Below, one piece after another: positions 6,115 to 47,718 of a stretch of DNA of 64,000 nucleotides. A program made the translations under genes and the position numbers. How positions within the stretch are numbered: the first letter of the stretch is position 1; every line of letters starts with the position of its first letter. Below the pieces are notes generated by a model that had not been told where the DNA came from, made no database searches, and was given only the letters and a program-made list of their open reading frames with translations. The stretch is taken from NCBI GenBank assembly GCA_965230915.1, contig OZ246395.1, positions 12,019 through 76,018 of the forward strand. Reading direction: 5' to 3'. Source of the DNA: an uncultured Candidatus Saccharibacteria bacterium (GTDB lineage Bacteria > Patescibacteriota > WWE3 > 2-01-FULL-39-13).

Positions 6115-7359
6115 ATGGATACTTTAAATCAATCTGCCCCAACTCCCAATAATTCTGCCGATAATCAAATTCCAAATAATAATGCACAAAATTCTGAATT
6201 TGCAGAAAAGGGCCCACTATTAAACTCGCGAATGAAGCGAAATATATTAATAGGATGTGGAATAGTTGCCGTATTAATAGCTGCTTTATTTGTAGGAGTT
6301 TTTGCTTACCAGCAAATGAATAAACCTCCTGCAATGATGCCACTTCCACCTGAACCTGTAGTTGAAAACCCTGAACCGGTACGCAGTGATACTCCACGTT
6401 TTGCGTATATTAAAAATGAAAAAAATATTTGGATTAGCAATATAAATGGGGAAGAAAAATTCAGCATTTTGGAACTTCCACTTACGAGTAAAAGTCGAGT
6501 CGTGTCACTAAGCTGGAAAGATAAAGATAATTTAAGCTATGTAACTTGCGATACAAGTACTAGCGTATGCGAAATTTCTACTTATAATTTTGAAACAAAA
6601 TCTATAAAACCTGAAGTTACTTCTACTGGCTCAACCCTTACAAAATTCGCATGGAGCAAAGATGGAAAATATCTAGCATACATAGAAAACCGTGGAAAAA
6701 ATACAAACCTACGCCTAAAACTTGGAACAATCGATAATATCCTAAAAACTTATGTGACCGATACAGAAGATGCGTCTCTTAGCAAATCAGTCGTAGATTT
6801 TAATGACGACAGCCAATATATTTTATATTCTTCTCCTGAACTTATTGTAAACGAGAATAAATCAACCACCCAAACTCAATCGGTCTATATTTATCAACTA
6901 AACGGCGCTCAAATCGATGAAATAAAGAATGTTGATTATCCGTTTTTCATTGATAACGACACAGTCGCATACAAATCAAACAATCGTCTGGTTTATAAAG
7001 ACGTAGGCACAACAGACGAATCAGCAATAACCGATTTTGCCGGATACAACCCAGCGCTTTCTCCGAACGATAATCAAATTGCATATTGGCGCGACGAGGT
7101 TGGCTTTAACAATGTTGTTTTAGGTGTTTATGAATCAGATAAAAATATCCACAGAAATATTTTGAGAGGAGTTATCTTGCCAGTTTGGGTTTCCCCAGAC
7201 AAAATTGTCGGAATAAAGGCCGACAGCTGTATTGGCGAACGATGTCTTTTATATGAATTTCAGACAACCAGTATGGTGATCGTCGATGTTAATAACGGAG
7301 AAGTTTTATCAGTAGACCAAGGAAAATCACTTACAGGAGTTGCCTTTTATGCCGATTAA
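6115..7359 (+). CDS. membrane-anchored protein with N/Q-rich N-terminus and TolB/PD40-like beta-propeller repeats
   Basis: Single TM (ILIGCGIVAVLIAALFVGVFAY); repeated ...DGKYLAY..., ...NDNQIAYWRDE... blades; overlaps the next gene by 20 nt (translational coupling). Confidence 0.5.
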   Translation: MDTLNQSAPTPNNSADNQIPNNNAQNSEFAEKGPLLNSRMKRNILIGCGIVAVLIAALFVGVFAYQQMNKPPAMMPLPPEPVVENPEPVRSDTPRFAYIKNEKNIWISNINGEEKFSILELPLTSKSRVVSLSWKDKDNLSYVTCDTSTSVCEISTYNFETKSIKPEVTSTGSTLTKFAWSKDGKYLAYIENRGKNTNLRLKLGTIDNILKTYVTDTEDASLSKSVVDFNDDSQYILYSSPELIVNENKSTTQTQSVYIYQLNGAQIDEIKNVDYPFFIDNDTVAYKSNNRLVYKDVGTTDESAITDFAGYNPALSPNDNQIAYWRDEVGFNNVVLGVYESDKNIHRNILRGVILPVWVSPDKIVGIKADSCIGERCLLYEFQTTSMVIVDVNNGEVLSVDQGKSLTGVAFYAD

Positions 7360-9217
7360 AGACGAATCACAAACAGCAGGTCGCCAGCATCCAATTCCGC
7401 AAAATGTTATGGATGTTGAATTTAAAGTTGTTGGAGATATTACCCTTCGCCAACTAATGTACCTTTTTGCTGGCGCAATTCTTGCCTATATTGTTTATAA
7501 ATCTGGCGCACCAGCATTCTGGAGGTATTTAATAGTATTCTTAACAGTCACAGGAACAATTGCAATTGCGTTTGTTCCATATGAGGAACGGGGACTAGAT
7601 AAATGGTTCATGAGTTTCATACGAGCCATGACTGCCCCCACTCAAATGGTGTGGCGAAAAACTTATTCTCCTCCCGCATATTTTTTATCTGATTATGCAA
7701 ACATTATTAAGAATGAAATTATCACTTTAACACCAGCAAAAAGTCGCAATAAATTAGATGATTATTTGGGTCAACTATCAGAATCTCAAAATGACCTAGA
7801 TAGAATTGAGGCCGCACGTTTGCAAAGTATTCGAATGGGATTTTCGACACAAGCCGGTGTTAGCGTTGTTACACAACAAGCCGCACCAAGCAGTTTTTCG
7901 CCTTCCTTAGGAGGAGGACCTACAACGGATGTAATTTTTGCCGATGAGCCAACAGCCCCAGGCCGAAGCATGTCTGACACACATGACGGAAATGCTCCGC
8001 ATGCTGAAATACAGCCGGTTCATGAAAAGGCCCCTGAACCACCAGAACAAACAAAACCTACGACAACTGAAAGTCCAAAGCCACAGCCAACACAACCAAA
8101 ACCTGAGACGAAACCAGAGCAAAATCAGGAAAACTTTGGGTCACAAAAATTGCAGCAGGCTCCAAAAAATGTTGAACAAAAGCCAATTACATCTACGCAA
8201 GCTCAACAACCAAAACCGCAGACGAAGCCGGTATCACCTGAACAAAAAGAAGCGTTAAAGGCTATCAAAGAAGATGAAGCTTCATCTAAAAAAGAATTAT
8301 TAGACTCAATCGAATTTAAAAAACCGACGTTGGGAGCACCAGCAGTTGATCGTGCAATAATAAATATTCCGTCGAATCCTAAAGGTGAAATCAAAATTAA
8401 TTTAACAACAAAATTGCCAAAAGTAATTGTGGTTCAAGATTTAAAAGAAATTCAGACAAAAGAATCGTCGCTAGAAAAAAGAGTCGGAGAACTTTTAGAA
8501 GTAGCAACTCAAGTAAGATCTGAAATGCAAGCGGCGGCTGACAAAGAAGCTCATAGAAATAAAAACCAAGGTCGTATCGAATTCTTTAATACAAAATATC
8601 AAGAACTTGAAAAAGAACGCGCAAAAATCACAACACAGCTTGATGAAAGTACAAGTCAGGTTCAACAAATTGGACAATCTGCAGATTCTGACCTAACTAA
8701 ACAGGTTCACGATCTATCGATTAAAAATGAAGAGCTAAAAGCTCAGCTTGCTCAAATTCAAGAAGAAATTAATATTTTAAGAGCAACACCTCAACAAACT
8801 GCTAAACCTGCTGAACCAGTGAAAGCTGCGGCTCAACAACCAAAAAAGCCTGAACCCACACCGGCTCCACCAAGAAATTCTGACCAAGCACAATCGTTAA
8901 ACCAGGTAACCCAATCAGATTACAAACCGGAAGATCCGAATAAAAAGGCTGTAGTTGACGCAAATTTAATCACAGGCACAGTGAAAAATAAAAAGGGCGA
9001 GCTAATTGATAACGCAGTCGTTATAATAAAAGATAAAGACGGTGATGCCATACGTGCTTTAAAGACAAATCAGTTGGGGCAGTTTAAAACACAGACTCCA
9101 ATGCAAAATGGCAAATACACAGTCGAAACAATTAAGGGAGGAATGAAGTTTGATATAATCTCGGTTGAAGCAAAAGGTCAACCAATTAGTCCACTTTCTA
9201 TCATCGCCTTCGAATAA
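7340..9217 (+). CDS. PrgI/VirB3-like membrane protein fused to a Pro/Gln/Lys-rich disordered region, a coiled coil and a C-terminal carboxypeptidase-regulatory-like beta-sandwich domain
   Basis: N-terminus GDITLRQLMYLFAGAILAYIVY plus a second TM helix matches the PrgI (VirB3) family signature; residues about 190-330 are low complexity (PEPPEQTKPTTTESPKPQPTQPKPETKPEQ); 370-470 heptad-rich; the last 100 aa (GTVKNKKGELIDNAVVIIKDKDGD...GKYTVE) resemble a CarboxypepD_reg fold. Confidence 0.55.
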   Translation: MPFMPIKDESQTAGRQHPIPQNVMDVEFKVVGDITLRQLMYLFAGAILAYIVYKSGAPAFWRYLIVFLTVTGTIAIAFVPYEERGLDKWFMSFIRAMTAPTQMVWRKTYSPPAYFLSDYANIIKNEIITLTPAKSRNKLDDYLGQLSESQNDLDRIEAARLQSIRMGFSTQAGVSVVTQQAAPSSFSPSLGGGPTTDVIFADEPTAPGRSMSDTHDGNAPHAEIQPVHEKAPEPPEQTKPTTTESPKPQPTQPKPETKPEQNQENFGSQKLQQAPKNVEQKPITSTQAQQPKPQTKPVSPEQKEALKAIKEDEASSKKELLDSIEFKKPTLGAPAVDRAIINIPSNPKGEIKINLTTKLPKVIVVQDLKEIQTKESSLEKRVGELLEVATQVRSEMQAAADKEAHRNKNQGRIEFFNTKYQELEKERAKITTQLDESTSQVQQIGQSADSDLTKQVHDLSIKNEELKAQLAQIQEEINILRATPQQTAKPAEPVKAAAQQPKKPEPTPAPPRNSDQAQSLNQVTQSDYKPEDPNKKAVVDANLITGTVKNKKGELIDNAVVIIKDKDGDAIRALKTNQLGQFKTQTPMQNGKYTVETIKGGMKFDIISVEAKGQPISPLSIIAFE

Positions 9218-9221
9218 TATT

Positions 9222-9920
9222 ATGGCCAAAAAATATTTAGCAACAACTCAAGAACATTTAGACATCTACGATATTAAAAATGGAATTGTTGTTTTAAAAA
9301 ACGGAAGTGCAGTTTGTATTTTGGAAACTAACGCAATTAACTTCGACCTTTTATCTATGATGGAGCAAGACGCAGCAATTTCTGCATACAGTAATCTTTT
9401 AAATTCATTAACTTTCCCTATTCAGGTTACTATTCGTTCTAAAAAAATGGATATCAGCGATTATTTAGAAAAAGTTAAAGAAGCCGAAAATAAACAGAGT
9501 AATCCCAAAATTAAAGAACAAATAGTTGCTTACAGAAAATTTATTCAAGAAGAACTTGTTACCAAAGAAGAAGTTTTGGATAAAAATTTTTATGTGACGA
9601 TTCCATATAAATTAACAAGCGTAGCAGCAAGTGATCCATTTGGATTCATTACAGATCTAGTCGGATTTCAAGCTAAACAACCAACCCGTGTAAATACAGA
9701 TAAAGTTTTAGAAGAAGCACGCGCAGATTTAGAACCAAAGAAAAACTTTTTGATAAAAGAATTTGCAAGAATTGGTATAAAAGCAACCGCTTTAAATACG
9801 GCAGATTTGATCAAGCTATTCTATGAAATATATAACAGTGAAACATCCCAGTCACAGAGAATTCGAGGAAATGTTGATGATTTTACGTCAGCTTTAGTTG
9901 AACCAAAGTTAAAGATTTAA
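9222..9920 (+). CDS. VirB4-family N-terminal-domain-like protein (separate ORF, same frame as the downstream ATPase)
   Basis: MAKKYLATTQEHLDIYDIKNGIVVLKNGSAVCILE..NFDLLS..EQDAAISAYSNLLNSLTFPIQV resembles the extreme N-terminus of TrsE/VirB4 proteins; the ORF-track start at 9165 overlaps the upstream gene, so the ATG at 9222 is preferred. Confidence 0.45.
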   Translation: MAKKYLATTQEHLDIYDIKNGIVVLKNGSAVCILETNAINFDLLSMMEQDAAISAYSNLLNSLTFPIQVTIRSKKMDISDYLEKVKEAENKQSNPKIKEQIVAYRKFIQEELVTKEEVLDKNFYVTIPYKLTSVAASDPFGFITDLVGFQAKQPTRVNTDKVLEEARADLEPKKNFLIKEFARIGIKATALNTADLIKLFYEIYNSETSQSQRIRGNVDDFTSALVEPKLKI

Positions 9921-9926
9921 AATAAT

Positions 9927-12335
9927 ATGGGACTATTTGGAAAATCAAAACCTAAAGAAGATACTTCAGAAACACTATCTCCAATGACTACAGTGAACAC
10001 TGGAGGGGCATCATCCGAAAGTTCTGTCTCAGCTTTTAGCGGAGTTTCAGAGCCTAAAACAAAATCTGTAAGAGCAGCAAAACCACAAAAACAAAAAGAT
10101 GAAACACCTGAACAAAAATTAGCACGAGGAATTCCATCGGTTCGAGATGTTATTGCTCCAAGTGCAATCGAAGTCGACTATAACTTTTTAAAAGTCGGAG
10201 ACAAATACTTTAGAACACTTTTTATTTCTGGATATCCACGTTTTGTCGGAGCAAACTGGCTTGAACCGATTATTAACTTTGACCACACTTTAACAATTTC
10301 GATGTTTTATTATCCGATAAACGCACGAAACGTTTTGGATGACTTGCGCCGAAAAATTGCAGAAATGGAAGCAACCATTAATATCGCACGTGAAAAAGGT
10401 AAAGTTATCGATCCCGGAGTTCAAGCGGCTTTAGAAGATGCAAAATCTTTACAGGAACAATTGGTAAAAGGTATTGAAAGATTTTTCCATTTTTCTTTTT
10501 ATGTAACTGTTTCGGCAAACACATTGGACGAATTAAATAACATTACATATCAAGTTGAATCTACTTTAGGATCTCTTTCTTTGATTTCGAAAAAAGCTAC
10601 ATTAGAAATGGAAGCCGCATTCCAGACAACAGTTCCTGTTTGTTTAGATAAATTAAAAATTATTCGTAACATGGACACCACTTCTGTTGCGACGACTTTT
10701 CCGTTTACTTCAAGCGAACTTACTTCAAACGAAGGTATTTTATATGGAGTTAACAAACACAACGGTTCATTAATTATTTTTGACCGTTTCTCTTTAGAAA
10801 ATGCGAACTCAGTAATCTTTGCAAAATCTGGTGCTGGTAAATCTTATTTGGTGAAACTCGAAGCTTTACGTTCACTTTTATTTGGAGTTGACCTGATCGT
10901 TATTGACCCCGAAACTGAATATCGAAAACTTTCTGACGCAGTTGGAGGAGAATACATCGACTTTAGTATTAACAGCTCTGCAAAAATTAATCCGTTTGAT
11001 TTGCCTGTTGTTCCTGAAGTTGAAGACCAACTTAGCATGAAGATATTAAGTTTGCACGCTTTATTCAGAATCATGTTGGGAGAACTATCAAGTTCAGAAT
11101 CGGCAGTTTTAGACCGCGCCTTAATCGACACTTACAGACTAAAAGGAATCACTCAAGACCCTAATACACAGCAAGATCGTGAACCTCCATTAATGGAAGA
11201 CCTGTATAAAGTTTTACTTGCGATGGACGAACCCGAGTCAAAATCTCTTGCCGAAAGAATGGAACGTTACATTAAAGGTTCGTTAGCAGGAGTTTTCGAC
11301 CAACGTTCAAATGTTTCTTTAGAAAATTCTTTTACAGTATTTTCTATTAGAAACTTACAAGATGTTTTGCGTCCAATCGCAATGTTCATGATTTTGGACT
11401 TTATTTGGACAAAAGTTAAACACGATTTAAAGAAACGTATATTGCTGTTAGACGAGGCTTGGACTTTGATGCAATATCCAGATTCAGCTGCATTCGTTTA
11501 TTCATTAGCAAAACGTGCAAGAAAATATTACTTGGGACTTACAACAATTACACAAGACGTTAACGACTTCTTAAATACAGATTATGGAAAAGCGGTTGTG
11601 ACCAACTCGTCTATACAAATTCTGTTAAAGCAGCACCCTGCAGCAATCGACAAAATTTCTGAAATTTTCTATTTGTCTCAAGGAGAAAGAAACTTTTTAT
11701 TGGCCGCCGGAATTGGAGAAGGATTATTCTTCGCCGGAACAAATCACGTTGCAATGCAAGTTAAAGCGTCACCACTTGAGCACCAACTGGTTACAACTAA
11801 TCCGAAAGAAGTTAAAGCTGAGCAAGACGAACAAAAGCAAAATAATGCGCCAGTTACACCGAGTATTCCACAAAGAAACGAGCAAGATTTTGAAAGATTA
11901 AAACAGAGATTCGAAACGGTGGATATTAATCAACCAAGAACACAACCTGCACCACAAGGTATGCCTCAGGCACAACCAATACAGCAACCTGGACAAACAC
12001 AAACGCAACAAATGCCAAATCCTTACCAGCAAACAAATCAGGGATATACACAAGCTCCGCAAGTTCAGATGCCGCAAACTAATGCACCTGCGCCAAGTGC
12101 GCCGCAACAAGGTGGACAAATGCCAAACCCATTTGAAAGACAATCTTTTAATGGATATCAAATGCCTGCGAATAATAATACGAACGGGGCACAACAAAAT
12201 AATTGGGCTCCGCAAAATCAACAGCAGCCAAATGCACAGCCACAAAACGGACAACCTAGCCAATCACCTAATCAGGGAACTATTCCGATTAATATGAATG
12301 GTGCTACTCCAACTCCGACTCCGCCTGGGTTTTAA
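9927..12335 (+). CDS. type IV secretion ATPase VirB4/TrsE/PrgJ family, with a long Q/P/N-rich C-terminal tail
   Basis: Walker A AKSGAGKS, Walker B ILLLDEAW, VirB4 N-domain motif (DYNFLKVGDKYFRTLFISGYPRFV); the C-terminal 190 aa are low-complexity (QQPGQTQTQQMPNPYQQTNQGY...). Confidence 0.85.
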   Translation: MGLFGKSKPKEDTSETLSPMTTVNTGGASSESSVSAFSGVSEPKTKSVRAAKPQKQKDETPEQKLARGIPSVRDVIAPSAIEVDYNFLKVGDKYFRTLFISGYPRFVGANWLEPIINFDHTLTISMFYYPINARNVLDDLRRKIAEMEATINIAREKGKVIDPGVQAALEDAKSLQEQLVKGIERFFHFSFYVTVSANTLDELNNITYQVESTLGSLSLISKKATLEMEAAFQTTVPVCLDKLKIIRNMDTTSVATTFPFTSSELTSNEGILYGVNKHNGSLIIFDRFSLENANSVIFAKSGAGKSYLVKLEALRSLLFGVDLIVIDPETEYRKLSDAVGGEYIDFSINSSAKINPFDLPVVPEVEDQLSMKILSLHALFRIMLGELSSSESAVLDRALIDTYRLKGITQDPNTQQDREPPLMEDLYKVLLAMDEPESKSLAERMERYIKGSLAGVFDQRSNVSLENSFTVFSIRNLQDVLRPIAMFMILDFIWTKVKHDLKKRILLLDEAWTLMQYPDSAAFVYSLAKRARKYYLGLTTITQDVNDFLNTDYGKAVVTNSSIQILLKQHPAAIDKISEIFYLSQGERNFLLAAGIGEGLFFAGTNHVAMQVKASPLEHQLVTTNPKEVKAEQDEQKQNNAPVTPSIPQRNEQDFERLKQRFETVDINQPRTQPAPQGMPQAQPIQQPGQTQTQQMPNPYQQTNQGYTQAPQVQMPQTNAPAPSAPQQGGQMPNPFERQSFNGYQMPANNNTNGAQQNNWAPQNQQQPNAQPQNGQPSQSPNQGTIPINMNGATPTPTPPGF

Positions 12336-12936: not shown

Positions 12937-14046
12937 TTACCAGTTAGCTTTCATGGGCATGGCGAGAAAAAAGTAATTGTCTTGGTCTTTAATATTAAAC
13001 AAACCAGGCTTAAGAGGATCAGAAGCCTTAAAAATAATTTCGGCTTCATCGATATTACTTAAAAAGTCTAATAAATATTTTGCGTTAAAAGTTATTTCGA
13101 TATTGTCACCATCTAGCTCACCGTTAATTTTGCTTTGGTTGCTTCCGGTTTCTGACGGTTGAGATTTTGCCTCAATTACATCTTCATTTGCAGAAATTTT
13201 TACGCTGTTTCCGATGTCTCGTGAAAAAATGCTGGCTAACTTTATTGCATTCAAAAGTTCTGTTTTTGAAACGTGAATTTCCGATGTAAATTCTTTTGGC
13301 AAAACTGCTTCGTAATCAGGATATTGTCCTTCGATCATCCTAAGTTGAGCTTCTGAATCTTCTGCGCGAACAACGACTGCATTTTTATCTGTGTTAATTA
13401 TTATTTCTAAACTTTCAGATTTTGGTGCAAAACTTTTTACAATATCGGTAAATGCTTTTGCAGGAATAACACATCGAACTTCGCTAGAAACTTCAGATTC
13501 TAATGCTAATTTATATTCGGCCATTCGATATCCGTCGGTACACGCAATGACTAAAGTCTTGCCTTCTGCTTTTAGAAATACTCCAGTTAAAACAGGTCGT
13601 GATTCATCTGCAGCAGATGCAAATTGAACTTGTGAAATTGCCTTAACAAGTTCTGAAGATTTAATAATTAATTTATCTCCATCTTCTGGTAATTCTAAAT
13701 TTGGAAATTCACTTGCAGGAATTGTTGTTAAATTTGCTTTTGCTTTATCAGTTGTAACTCTTAAGTTTGATCCGTCTAAAGTTAATTCAATTTTCTCATC
13801 GCTTAATTGATTAACAAAATCAATTAATATTTTTGCTGGAACAGTTATTTCGCCAGGCTGATCTACTTTTGCACCAACCCATGATGAAATTGTAATTTGT
13901 AAATCTGATGAAGTAATTTTTACACGACCTTTGTCGGTACGAATTAATAAGTTTGATAAAACGGGAAGTGGACTTCGATTATTTACCGCACGACTAACGA
14001 GTGCCAAACCTTTCTGAAAATTTTCTTGTAATACAGTGAATTGCAT
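12937..14046 (-). CDS. dnaN: DNA polymerase III beta sliding clamp
   Basis: MQFTVLQENFQKGLALVSRAV..PVLSNLLI; 369 aa with three-domain clamp organisation. Confidence 0.9.
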   Translation of the reverse strand: MQFTVLQENFQKGLALVSRAVNNRSPLPVLSNLLIRTDKGRVKITSSDLQITISSWVGAKVDQPGEITVPAKILIDFVNQLSDEKIELTLDGSNLRVTTDKAKANLTTIPASEFPNLELPEDGDKLIIKSSELVKAISQVQFASAADESRPVLTGVFLKAEGKTLVIACTDGYRMAEYKLALESEVSSEVRCVIPAKAFTDIVKSFAPKSESLEIIINTDKNAVVVRAEDSEAQLRMIEGQYPDYEAVLPKEFTSEIHVSKTELLNAIKLASIFSRDIGNSVKISANEDVIEAKSQPSETGSNQSKINGELDGDNIEITFNAKYLLDFLSNIDEAEIIFKASDPLKPGLFNIKDQDNYFFLAMPMKANW

Positions 14047-14096
14047 ATTCTGTTAACTATTTGTAACAGAAAGAGTAGTAAAACGGCAAGCGGGAA

Positions 14097-14582
14097 TTAT
14101 TCGGAAATTTCTTGGTTATCAGGAATAATGATGACTCTACGGTTGTATCCTTCGCCTTCTGATGAAGATGTAACTCCTTCGAGTTCTCCAACTTTATCAT
14201 GGACAATTTTTCTTTCGTAAGAATTCATTGGATACAATGCAACTGATTTCATTAATGATTTTGCTTTTTCAGCAGCATTTTCTGCAAGTTCTGTTAATTT
14301 TCTTTCGCGTTCTAATCTGTAACCAGAAACATCAACTAAAACTCCAACACCTTCTCCGACTTCTTTAAAGAGCATTACATTTAATAGGTGCTGTAACGCA
14401 TTTAAAGTCTCTCCATGGTATCCAATTATTAAATTTGTATCTTGAGTATCTATCTCAACATAAAATCGTTCATTAGTTGTATTTCTTTCTTGTGGAAATT
14501 TAATTTCAGCTTGAACTTCTAATTGAGCGAAAATAGTTTCTAATGTTTCTTTAATTTTTTGTTCAATTTGATTTCTGTCCAT
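14097..14582 (-). CDS. khpB: RNA-binding protein Jag/KhpB (KH plus R3H domains)
   Basis: Conserved position downstream of yidC; the C-terminal R3H-like ...GEGYNRRVIIIPD. Confidence 0.78.
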   Translation of the reverse strand: MDRNQIEQKIKETLETIFAQLEVQAEIKFPQERNTTNERFYVEIDTQDTNLIIGYHGETLNALQHLLNVMLFKEVGEGVGVLVDVSGYRLERERKLTELAENAAEKAKSLMKSVALYPMNSYERKIVHDKVGELEGVTSSSEGEGYNRRVIIIPDNQEISE

Positions 14583-15351
14583 TTGTTAATTCCTTACTAG
14601 CTTTTGGGCGGGATAGATAAGCATACTGTCCAACAGCTATTATGGTCGAAATAAACCAATAAAGCGGAAGACCGGCCGGCAAATTAAATCCAAATACGAC
14701 TGTCATAATTGGCAGCATATAGGTCATTTGCTCCTGCATATTATACATAACATCATCAGACTTGTCAGGTGTATTCTCCGCTATTTTCTCCATTTTCTTA
14801 GTACTTTGCATTGTATATTTGGACATAAAAAATTGAGCAATACCAGCTAATACAGGTAAAACAAACCATGGGTCCGGTTTTGCTAAGTCCCAAAGTAAGA
14901 ATTTAGTATGTAATTGAGCTCCATCTGCAAACTTTAAAAAGTCGAGTGGATACAATAAATGGTTAATATCAGAGATCATTACCCCGCTTCCTTGCAAGAC
15001 ATTCGTGAAGACTCTATATAAAGCAATAACAATAATAATTTGGATAATCTGAGGTAAGCAACCAGCAGCCGGATTAATTCCATGTTCTTTAAATAGCTCC
15101 ATCTGCTTTTGGGCAAATTCTTCACGCTTTGGATATCTCTTTTTTAATTCGTCTATTTGTGGCTGAAGCTCTTTCTGTTTCTTAGACATCTCGAGCATCG
15201 GCTTAGAAAGCGGGTAAGTGACGACTTTAATAAGTACGGTAAGCGCAATAATGGCCAAACCTAGGTTTTCCCACATAAAGTGGTACAAAATTATGAGCCC
15301 ATTTAAAATTGGGATATAAAACAGGGTATTCCAGATATCAGTTAAAAACAT
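14563..15351 (-). CDS. yidC: membrane protein insertase YidC (short form)
   Basis: Polytopic, conserved YidC/Oxa1 core motifs, in the rnpA-yidD-yidC-jag context. Confidence 0.88.
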   Translation of the reverse strand: MFLTDIWNTLFYIPILNGLIILYHFMWENLGLAIIALTVLIKVVTYPLSKPMLEMSKKQKELQPQIDELKKRYPKREEFAQKQMELFKEHGINPAAGCLPQIIQIIIVIALYRVFTNVLQGSGVMISDINHLLYPLDFLKFADGAQLHTKFLLWDLAKPDPWFVLPVLAGIAQFFMSKYTMQSTKKMEKIAENTPDKSDDVMYNMQEQMTYMLPIMTVVFGFNLPAGLPLYWFISTIIAVGQYAYLSRPKASKELTNGQKSN

Positions 15352-15353
15352 GC

Positions 15354-15608
15354 TTAGGTAACGGGATCATATCCGCCTTTTGTAAAAGGGTTACATCGAA
15401 GTATTCTCCAAAGACCTAAAAATCCGCCTTTAAAAATGCCGTATTTATCGATGGCCTGGTATGTATATTCTGAACAATAAGGTTCAAAACGACAGACACG
15501 AACGCCCAAATGGCTAAAGGTGTGACTTTGGTCTAGAGAAATCCACTTTTGATAAAAACGAATTGATCTCAGAATTAATTTCTTCAACACTGACGACGAT
15601 TTTACCAT
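15354..15608 (-). CDS. yidD: membrane protein insertion efficiency factor YidD
   Basis: RFYQKWIS...C.FEPYCSEY signature. Confidence 0.85.
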
Positions 15609-15888
15609 TTTTGTCGAAAAATGTTTTTTTAGGGATAAAAATGAAACTGTATCTTTCCGGGAATTTCTCTAAATTGCCTTTTACTGATCTTGAAATTATT
15701 CGGCGAATTTTATTCTGCTCGACTGCCTTTTTAGTAAGACGATTTGAAGTAATAACAGCAAATTGAGGCGCCACCGCCCTATCTTCTCTATACTTAACTA
15801 TTAAATGGGGAGAGACAAACTCGGTTAAAGACTTTAAAACTCGGGTGAAATTATATCTGGTTTTGAGGCTGAATTTTCGGCTATACAC
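15514..15888 (-). CDS. rnpA: RNase P protein component
   Basis: Basic protein with RLTKK..F..V.R motif; overlaps yidD by about 95 nt in another frame. Confidence 0.78.
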
Positions 15889-15911
15889 AGCTAAATTCTA
15901 CAATAAAACGC

Positions 15912-16070
15912 TTATTTAGATACGCGTCCTCTATTAATAGCGAGTCTTACACGGCCTTTAAGTCTGCGTCTTTTAAGGACATTTCTGCCTGCTTTAGTTC
16001 GCATTCTTTTTAAGAATCCATGTTTTCTGTTTCCTTTCTTTACTTTTGGTTGCCAGGTTCTTTTCGGCAT
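15912..16070 (-). CDS. rpmH: 50S ribosomal protein L34
   Basis: [40 protein letters not shown]; the track ORF (to 16205) is a 5' extension, and the internal ATG at 16068-16070 gives the canonical length. Confidence 0.85.
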
Positions 16071-16127
16071 AGCAAGGCAAATTGTAACATAAGAGGGCAA
16101 TCCACACCATATATTAAGAGCCTGGAT

Positions 16128-16158
16128 TTGTGGATAATTTCGGGTTGACTGTGGATAA
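16128..16158. promoter_or_regulatory. two perfect DnaA boxes (TTATCCACA, reverse orientation) at the dnaA 5' end
   Basis: tgtggataa at 16128-16136 and 16150-16158; they lie upstream of the preferred dnaA ATG at 16181. Confidence 0.55.
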
Positions 16159-16180
16159 ACCTCCTTATACACTGCCAGAT

Positions 16181-17578
16181 ATGGATCAGCTGAAACTAGA
16201 TACAATTTGGAAATCTATAAAAGGAGAATTAGAAGTAGTATCTAATCCTGTTCATTTTAAGGCGAATATCCCCGGTACATATATCAGCAAAATCGACGAA
16301 GAAAATAAAATTATTGAAATTTCAGCTCCCAGCGAATATAAAAAAAACTTTATAGAAGACCGCTTTTACGGCTACTTAAAAGAAATTATTGAAAAAGATC
16401 TAGGCCGAGGATACCGACTAATGTTTACGGTTACCAAGGTTGAAAAAAATGAAACTCCACAAGATCTTGGGCCACTTTTTGACCAAGAGGAAGAGACCAA
16501 AACAGATGAGGCAGATTTTAATAAAAGACTGACAGATGCAGGACTTAGTAATAGATATACAATTGGCCGCTTTATAGTAGGATCGCACAACAAACTTGCC
16601 TATGCAGTATCTACAGCAATAATCGATAATCCAGGCAGAGTTTATAACCCATTCTTTTTATATTCTGGAGTAGGTTTAGGAAAAACCCACTTGGTTCAAG
16701 CCATTGGCTACGAAATTTTACGAAAGCATCCGGACAAAGTCGTCGTTTATAAAACCGGTGAACAATTTTTAAATGAAGTAGTTGAAGCCGTTAGGCGAGG
16801 AGGCGCAGCCAACCAAGATTTTAAGAGAAATGACCTAAAGAAGAAATATCGAAATGCAGATGTCCTCATAATCGACGATATACATGCTATCGCTGGAAAA
16901 ACTTCCACTCAGGAAGAATTTTTTAATACATTTAATACTTTGTACATGGCACAAAAGCAAATTATTTTGACTAGTGACCGAGCTCCACATGAAATAAAAA
17001 CTTTAGAGGAACGATTATCTTCAAGATTTGCCAGCGGAATTATTGCAGATATTCAAAAGCCCGATTTTGAAACAAGAGCAGCAATTTTGAAAGAAAAAAA
17101 TGAGGAACTGAATTTACAGGCTCCAGATCACGTTATCGATTATGTTGCAAATTCCGTAACGACAAGTATTCGGGAACTAGAATCGGCTTTATTACAAACG
17201 GTCACTCACGCCAGAACATTCGGACAAGACCTAACAAAAGAAACTACCACTAATATAATGAACGATATTAATCGGGAAAAACAAAGGCGGGTTACTCCGA
17301 ATACAATAATTAGGGAAACCAGTAAATATTATGGCATTACGGTTAAAGATATTAAAGGTCAGCGCCGGTTAAAAAATCTAGTAATGCCAAGACAGGTTTG
17401 CATGTATCTTCTTCGTGATATGGGAGGTTTAGGGTTCCAATCTATTGGCGAACTTTTAGGTAATCGAGATCACTCAACGGTTGTACATGGAGTTAATAAA
17501 ACTTCTGAATTAATAAAAGAGCCTACCTTTAGTAAAGAGATTGAACAAATTAAAACTAATATATTAGTTGATGCTTAA
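16181..17578 (+). CDS. dnaA: chromosomal replication initiator DnaA
   Basis: AAA+ Walker [10 protein letters not shown], a box VII region, and a C-terminal HTH (domain IV); the track start GTG at 16130 would put the DnaA boxes inside the ORF, so the ATG at 16181 ([12 protein letters not shown]...) is more typical. Confidence 0.93.
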
Positions 17579-47345: not shown

Positions 47346-47718
47346 TGGTGGAGATGGAGGGAATCGAACCCTCGTGCTAATAGATTTTCCGTTCAAAGTA
47401 TTACAAGCTTCGCAGTTTTAAAAATTTATATAAACCTAGTAAAACTGCAAAAGGTGTTTATATAAATGATTCCTTACTTTCGTAAAGCGTGTCTTGCGAC
47501 TTCCAATGTAGGTTGAGCTTAATAGAAAGACATTGGCAAACTTTGATCTATTAAACTGCTGATGGATAATTCCGTTCGTTTAGATTAAGCGTAAGCTATT
47601 TCGTAAACGTCAGCTGTAACGTTGTTATTGACGTTTGATTTTTGATTCAGTTTTAAGACTTATATCAGGTCTGCTTGCTTCAGACGAAGTGTCTGCTAGG
47701 CGATGCCTTGACATCCCC
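47346..47718 (-). ncRNA. ssrA: tmRNA (SsrA), 373 nt
   Basis: 5' GGGGAUG... and 3' ...GGUUCGAUUCCCUCCAUCUCCACCA form a tRNA-Ala-like acceptor stem with the G3-U70 wobble; internal candidate tag frame ending ...ADVYEIAYA-UAA; sits next to smpB. Confidence 0.8.

Follow-up and report, generated by a model that had tools for sequence, protein, structure and literature searches.

Two neighboring open reading frames (ORFs) at 9222-12335 on the plus strand of contig OZ246395.1, from an uncultured Candidatus Saccharibacteria bacterium of the WWE3 lineage of Patescibacteriota, encode a TrsD-like protein of 232 amino acids and a VirB4-like ATPase of 802 amino acids; all coordinates are those of the window, the whole 64,000-nucleotide stretch of this contig that was analyzed. 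A gene for a PrgI-family, VirB3-like membrane protein lies ahead of them, and the order of genes is PrgI/VirB3-like, TrsD-like, VirB4-like ATPase (Table 1). The ATG codons at 9222 and 9927 are 705 nucleotides apart (235 x 3) and so lie in one common frame, and translation of 9222-12335 in that frame encounters a single stop. The original prediction had drawn attention to this shared frame, interrupted only by a TAA codon and the AATAAT that follows it, and its reading of the sequence is correct. By chance, one pair of neighboring genes in three lies in a common frame, and the observation means nothing when taken alone. From comparison of the two proteins with known families and with related genomes, we conclude that the ORFs are very probably two separate, independently initiated genes of a chromosomal type IV secretion system (T4SS) of the Patescibacteria (candidate phyla radiation, CPR), whose products would associate to rebuild VirB4.

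Table 1. Features of the PrgI-TrsD-VirB4 locus, in window coordinates
Feature	Coordinates	Strand	Basis
PrgI-family (VirB3-like) membrane protein with a long C-terminal extension	7349..9217	+	Pfam; first gene of the PrgI-TrsD-VirB4 trio
TrsD-like / Pfam "TraC-like" (PF26593) gene, 232 amino acids plus stop	9222..9920	+	NCBIfam, hhalign, AlphaFold2/Foldseek, homologues
Stop codon TAA of the TrsD-like gene	9918..9920	+	Read directly from the sequence
Intergenic spacer AATAAT, 6 nucleotides	9921..9926	+	Read directly from the sequence
VirB4-like conjugal-transfer-type ATPase gene (TrsE / CD1110 type), 802 amino acids plus stop, without the extreme N-terminal subdomain	9927..12335	+	NCBIfam, Pfam
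N-terminal peptide MGLFGKSKPKE and Ser/Thr/Lys-rich low-complexity leader of the ATPase, about 75 amino acids	9927..10151	+	Motif recurrence across loci
Conserved VirB4 core, residues 76-637: distal N-domain and P-loop ATPase domain	10152..11837	+	Alignment to fused protein
Gln/Pro/Asn-rich low-complexity C-terminal tail of the ATPase	11838..12332	+	Seen in translation

The downstream product is recognized by the NCBIfam model NF045971 (the CD1110 family) at 387.5 bits (E = 1.3e-115; cut-off, 325 bits), is matched by the Pfam families P-loop_TraG, AAA_10, and DUF87, and is 27% identical to TrsE of pSK41 (E = 1e-44). Walker A (AKSGAGKS, residues 299-306) and Walker B (LLLDEAW, residues 506-512) motifs can be read from its translation in alignment with TrsE. 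Residues 60-610 align to positions 175-734 of the 752-position CD1110 profile, leaving the N-terminal part of the profile uncovered, and the Mbov_0397 VirB4 profile is covered only from about position 278 onward. The suggestion that the ATPase carries a VirB4 N-domain motif of its own was therefore imprecise, the profiles being matched only from position 175 or so; because the match begins there, the ATPase and the upstream module are complementary, not redundant.

The homology in the ATPase is preceded by a low-complexity leader of about 60-75 amino acids. We compared such leaders across 80 loci (80 genomic loci of related Patescibacteria were fetched, and the junction between the two genes was measured in 79 of them and in the window; one, L005, has no downstream gene in the fetched DNA). 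The original prediction described the leader as Ser/Thr/Lys-rich, 70 amino acids long, and unusual. The composition and, roughly, the length are right, but a leader of this kind is typical of the family, in which lengths run from 10 to 67 amino acids, and that of the window is long yet inside the family range. At their starts, the ATPases of the 80 loci display a recurring motif, M-x-L-(N/P)-x-F-x-x-F-K-K-K. The tail at the other end, counted from residue 625, comprises 177 amino acids, 68% of them Q, P, N, S, T, or G; it is also typical of the family, in which the median tail is 129 amino acids long and the longest 317.

The upstream protein had been likened to the extreme N terminus of VirB4/TrsE, and NCBIfam, hhalign, and Foldseek all support that likeness, although its length, given as 233 amino acids, is 232. 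Two NCBIfam VirB4 profiles match it weakly, the CD1110 profile at positions 11-128 (residues 18-136 of the protein) and the Mbov_0397 profile at positions 114-233. Its match to the TrsD/TraD model NF041427 (E = 2.6e-7, 30.7 bits) is far under the curated cut-off of 200; when an alignment of 24 of its homologues was compared with pSK41 TrsD by hhalign, the two were related with a probability of 95.2% (E = 2.9e-8, 175 columns). A Pfam scan returned nothing even at E = 10 with a model set that did not include PF26593, and an identical protein (P0001) has a precomputed match to that family. A search of PDB sequences with the TrsD profile yielded a chance match only (E = 0.57), so that a comparison of folds was needed to make the link to VirB4. 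With an AlphaFold2 model of the protein (predicted local distance difference test [pLDDT] 70.5), the 14 top Foldseek matches in the PDB were all R388 TrwK/VirB4 chains, at probabilities of 0.94-1.0 and template modeling (TM) scores of 0.33-0.45; the matches that followed had probabilities below 0.3. There are 660 homologues of the protein, and the best 120 of these, from WWE3 and other Patescibacteria, carry PF26593 and are 176-250 amino acids long, all but one falling between 224 and 250. The 232-amino-acid protein is homologous to the extreme N-terminal subdomain of VirB4 and is encoded on its own.

Many TrsD homologues bear C-terminal extensions of 50-480 amino acids that are rich in Gln, Pro, Ser, Thr, and Asn. 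The C-terminal motifs of four of them resemble one another: P0163 has MPPLPEI, and P0253, P0223, and P0215 have LPPI(A/S)EI(T/E).

By their coverage of the CD1110 profile, the two products of the window are shown to be complementary parts of a full VirB4, since the upstream protein (positions 11-128) covers the front that the match of the ATPase (positions 175-734) misses. Single proteins that unite both parts also occur. An exhaustive search with the TrsD profile found many longer proteins that start with a TrsD domain. Among 10 long homologues examined, nine (in the range of 300-715 amino acids) proved to be TrsD followed by low-complexity disordered tails, and only P0228 (787 amino acids) is a true TrsD-VirB4 fusion, matching positions 3-735 of the CD1110 profile in one stretch. 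A search with P0228 recovered about 45 clusters of fused proteins, 738-897 amino acids long and including Candidatus Amesbacteria, and beside them closely related split ATPases of 573-667 amino acids. In the Amesbacteria loci L087/L088 (4001-6385), a PrgI gene is followed by one fused gene of 794 amino acids, an arrangement present on at least 24 contigs; in the syntenic loci L089/L090 (3334-5926), PrgI is followed by a TrsD of 217 amino acids and an ATPase of 641. The 794-amino-acid fusion joins residues 8-210 of TrsD directly to residues 31-602 of the ATPase, so that the TrsD tail, the ATPase N-terminal peptide, and the leader are all dropped.

The proteins of the window align to residues 10-205 (TrsD-like) and 219-781 (ATPase) of a natural fused protein, the VirB4 core being 64% identical over the latter segment. 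When modeled, the fused protein can be superposed on R388 TrwK/VirB4 along its full length, with a TM score of 0.67 over about 850 columns (E = 2e-25), and TrsD and the ATPase together thus make up one VirB4. The fused forms belong to a distant lineage only, at 42% and 64% identity, and close relatives are all split. Fusion or splitting of TrsD and VirB4 may have happened more than once within the Patescibacteria. Some other VirB4 homologues from these bacteria (P0307, P0308, P0311, P0317, P0318, and others) are 1158-1215 amino acids long and contain an intein and LAGLIDADG homing-endonuclease domains (PF14890, PF14528).

The significance of the shared frame can be judged from the 80 junctions. 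In every one, a stop codon (TAA in 64) is followed by a spacer of -4 to +65 nucleotides, with a mode of 1 nucleotide, and then by a new ATG or GTG. Relative to TrsD, the ATPase lies in the +1 frame in 33 loci, in the +2 frame in 31, and in the same frame in 16; the last is the rarest state, and three of those 16 loci have two stops. A binomial test of this depletion gives p = 0.012, a value we leave uninterpreted given that the loci are phylogenetically related and the spacing is dominated by spacers of 1-2 nucleotides. The closest relative of the window (L002, 89% identity) has the junction TAAAATG, which puts its ATPase in another frame. The Amesbacteria split pair is out of frame across a 13-nucleotide spacer, trsD and trsE of pSK41 are adjacent in different frames 14 nucleotides apart, and on two Firmicutes plasmids (pBMB68 and a Halobacillus plasmid) the pair is in frame by chance. 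The arrangement of TrsD and ATPase recurs in 79 related loci and on all three of these plasmids. The original prediction had held that the shared frame would be coincidental if relatives consistently had two genes with a spacer and no conservation of frame, and this is what the 80 loci display. We regard the shared frame in the window as coincidental for that reason, and of the possibilities initially raised, a genuine arrangement of two proteins is the one upheld by the relatives.

In about 50 of the 80 loci the TrsD gene ends in I-[ILVF]-E-E-stop, encoded by GAGGA(A/G)TAA, a sequence that is at the same time a Shine-Dalgarno-like site for the ATPase gene. TrsD proteins of the window's own clade end in PK(I/L)x, and their genes are without this site.

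Were the two genes expressed as we suppose, translation would terminate at the TAA at 9918 and restart at the ATG at 9927, and the 6-nucleotide spacer is compatible with translational coupling, which seems probable in an operon packed this tightly. The TrsD-like protein would most likely bind the ATPase core and the VirB3-like membrane protein noncovalently; docked on the N-domain of the ATPase, it would complete the VirB4 motor that energizes the machine. We speculate that TrsD may dock with the help of the conserved peptide at the ATPase N terminus, and that this peptide (M-x-L-x-x-F-x-K-K-K), gained by the split forms, may replace the covalent link. The motif, found at 9927-9960 in the window and at the starts of L001-L080, is absent from the natural fusions and is a candidate docking peptide. 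Two observations weigh against this interpretation. The structural model of the TrsD-like protein is of moderate confidence, at the pLDDT of 70.5, and its Foldseek matches, at the TM scores given above and E values of about 1e-3, are weak. A Shine-Dalgarno sequence was looked for 5' of the ATG at 9927, and none was found; because only 4 of the 31 long ORFs of the window have such a motif upstream, its absence here is uninformative.

The same pair of ORFs might be explained in other ways. If a formerly single VirB4 gene had recently acquired a nonsense mutation, or if its sequencing or assembly had gone wrong, two ORFs in one frame with one stop codon between them would also result, and the existence of fused forms elsewhere makes such an ancestor conceivable. 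The stop, however, falls at the conserved C terminus of a family of 660 homologues (the best 120 being 176-250 amino acids long), the stretch beyond it has a conserved start motif, and all 79 related loci with a downstream gene are split. The position of the stop is conserved in hundreds of homologues. The 33-nucleotide junction, moreover, is identical in contigs of three independent assemblies, made from three different sequencing runs, and an assembly error is therefore excluded. We give this explanation practically no credence. The original prediction also raised programmed readthrough of the TAA at 9918, which would produce a long TrsD-VirB4 fusion beside the two separate proteins. In this organism a small fraction of ribosomes might read through the stop to yield a single TrsD-linker-VirB4 chain, similar to the Amesbacteria proteins and usable in the motor, a proposal that we consider very improbable, as we do programmed readthrough of this stop. 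The ORFs are in frame, the one stop is not followed by a second, and the single-chain proteins of other Patescibacteria imply that such a fusion would probably fold; yet an in-frame ORF downstream of a single stop is the sole likeness to systems of readthrough and recoding. The frame is shared in only 16 of the 80 loci (with two stops in 3) and is lost in the nearest relative, a lack of conservation that speaks against programming. TAA is the standard stop of the genome, terminating 25 of the 31 long ORFs of the window, and is not in a leaky context. The predicted fold of 9890-10010 is unremarkable (z-score, -0.28), with no RNA structure near the stop that would stimulate readthrough. The ATPase gene begins with a conserved ATG and N-terminal motif of its own, and the natural fusions delete the TrsD tail and the ATPase leader instead of reading through them.

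A different objection accepts two genes and questions what the first of them does. TrsD could be an accessory factor in its own right, such as a regulator or an assembly chaperone, that descends from the VirB4 N terminus and supplies no missing part of the structure. Its homologues in Gracilibacteria are mostly not beside virB4 (PMC12102498), as might be expected of such a factor, and the long disordered C-terminal extensions on many TrsD homologues would suit this role as well. Still, the segment of the profile that is missing from the ATPase is exactly that of TrsD, natural fusions join the two seamlessly into a protein whose model matches full-length VirB4, and adjacency and gene order have been kept from Firmicutes plasmids to Patescibacteria. 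We think an accessory role unlikely, and we favor two genes whose products together form one VirB4 motor.

The PrgI-family protein that begins the trio has its PF12666 domain at residues 18-103 (E = 2.9e-9) and a CarboxypepD_reg match at residues 544-602. It is called at 622 amino acids in public assemblies, an unusual length, with the CarboxypepD_reg-like domain near its C terminus; in Amesbacteria, PrgI and this domain are encoded by one gene in L090 and by two in L089. Directly upstream (6115-7359), and overlapping the PrgI gene, lies a gene for a TolB/PD40-like beta-propeller protein. The order PrgI-TrsD-VirB4 is found on Firmicutes plasmids and in Amesbacteria loci as well. The pair lies about 4 kb from a predicted replication origin. 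The region at 12937-17578 resembles a replication-origin region, with yidC, jag, and dnaN (identified by Pfam), rnpA and rpmH (ORFs recognized by eye only), and one small ORF on the minus strand. The dnaA gene is on the plus strand and is preceded by two TGTGGATAA putative DnaA boxes at about 16128-16165; dnaN is apart from it, on the opposite strand. Elsewhere in the window, ARAGORN predicts a tmRNA gene at 47346-47718 on the minus strand (tag peptide, ERNYPSAV), and a tRNA-Phe gene lies at 64-139.

Much of this organization has been described. Quinonero-Coronel et al. (2025; PMC12102498) found TrsD in Patescibacteria more often than any other T4SS component; of its 2,272 homologues there, 1,664 adjoin virB4. 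They reported its remote homology to the VirB4 N terminus, the frequent location of the T4SS cluster near dnaA, dnaN, rnpA, and rpmH, and the essentiality of one TrsD homologue in Ca. Southlakia epibionticum. The pairing of TrsD with VirB4, the position near dnaA, and the homology to the VirB4 N terminus are thus already known. Their text contains no mention of TrsD-VirB4 fusions, and "fusion" there refers to VirB3-VirB4 only. Compared with the pairs they described, the window has the same two genes, with PrgI/VirB3 ahead of them, at the same chromosomal location, and there is no substantial difference. The feature is one more instance of a real, ordinary, and known arrangement.

In the MPF-FATA class, the staphylococcal plasmids pSK41 and pGO1 encode TrsD and TrsE (TraD and TraE of pIP501), and a TrsD of 227 amino acids lies directly upstream of a DUF87/VirB4-like ATPase, as in the window. 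Both window proteins are homologous to those of pSK41, yet very distantly, as the 30.7 bits of the TrsD match against a cut-off of 200 indicate. Systems of the pSK41 type serve plasmid conjugation and include a relaxase and a coupling protein, whereas the window pair is chromosomal; the pSK41 genes are separated by 14 nucleotides and occupy different frames, those of the window by 6 nucleotides in the same frame. Single-chain VirB4 proteins (the Firmicutes CD1110 family, R388 TrwK, and the Amesbacteria-type fusion) contain the same domains in the same order as the window pair taken together, but in the window the first subdomain is a separate chain. Relative to the fusions, the window ATPase adds the conserved N-terminal peptide, the disordered leader, and the Q/P/N-rich tail.

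For annotation, the first gene should be named a TrsD-like VirB4 N-terminal module and the second a VirB4-like ATPase; neither a pseudogene nor a recoding flag is warranted. In the single cultivated system in which this was tested, Patescibacteria cannot grow as epibionts without their T4SS. The side observation that closely syntenic genomes carry either the split or the fused version, together with the conserved N-terminal peptide of the split ATPase, may for this reason aid structural work on how the motor is assembled.

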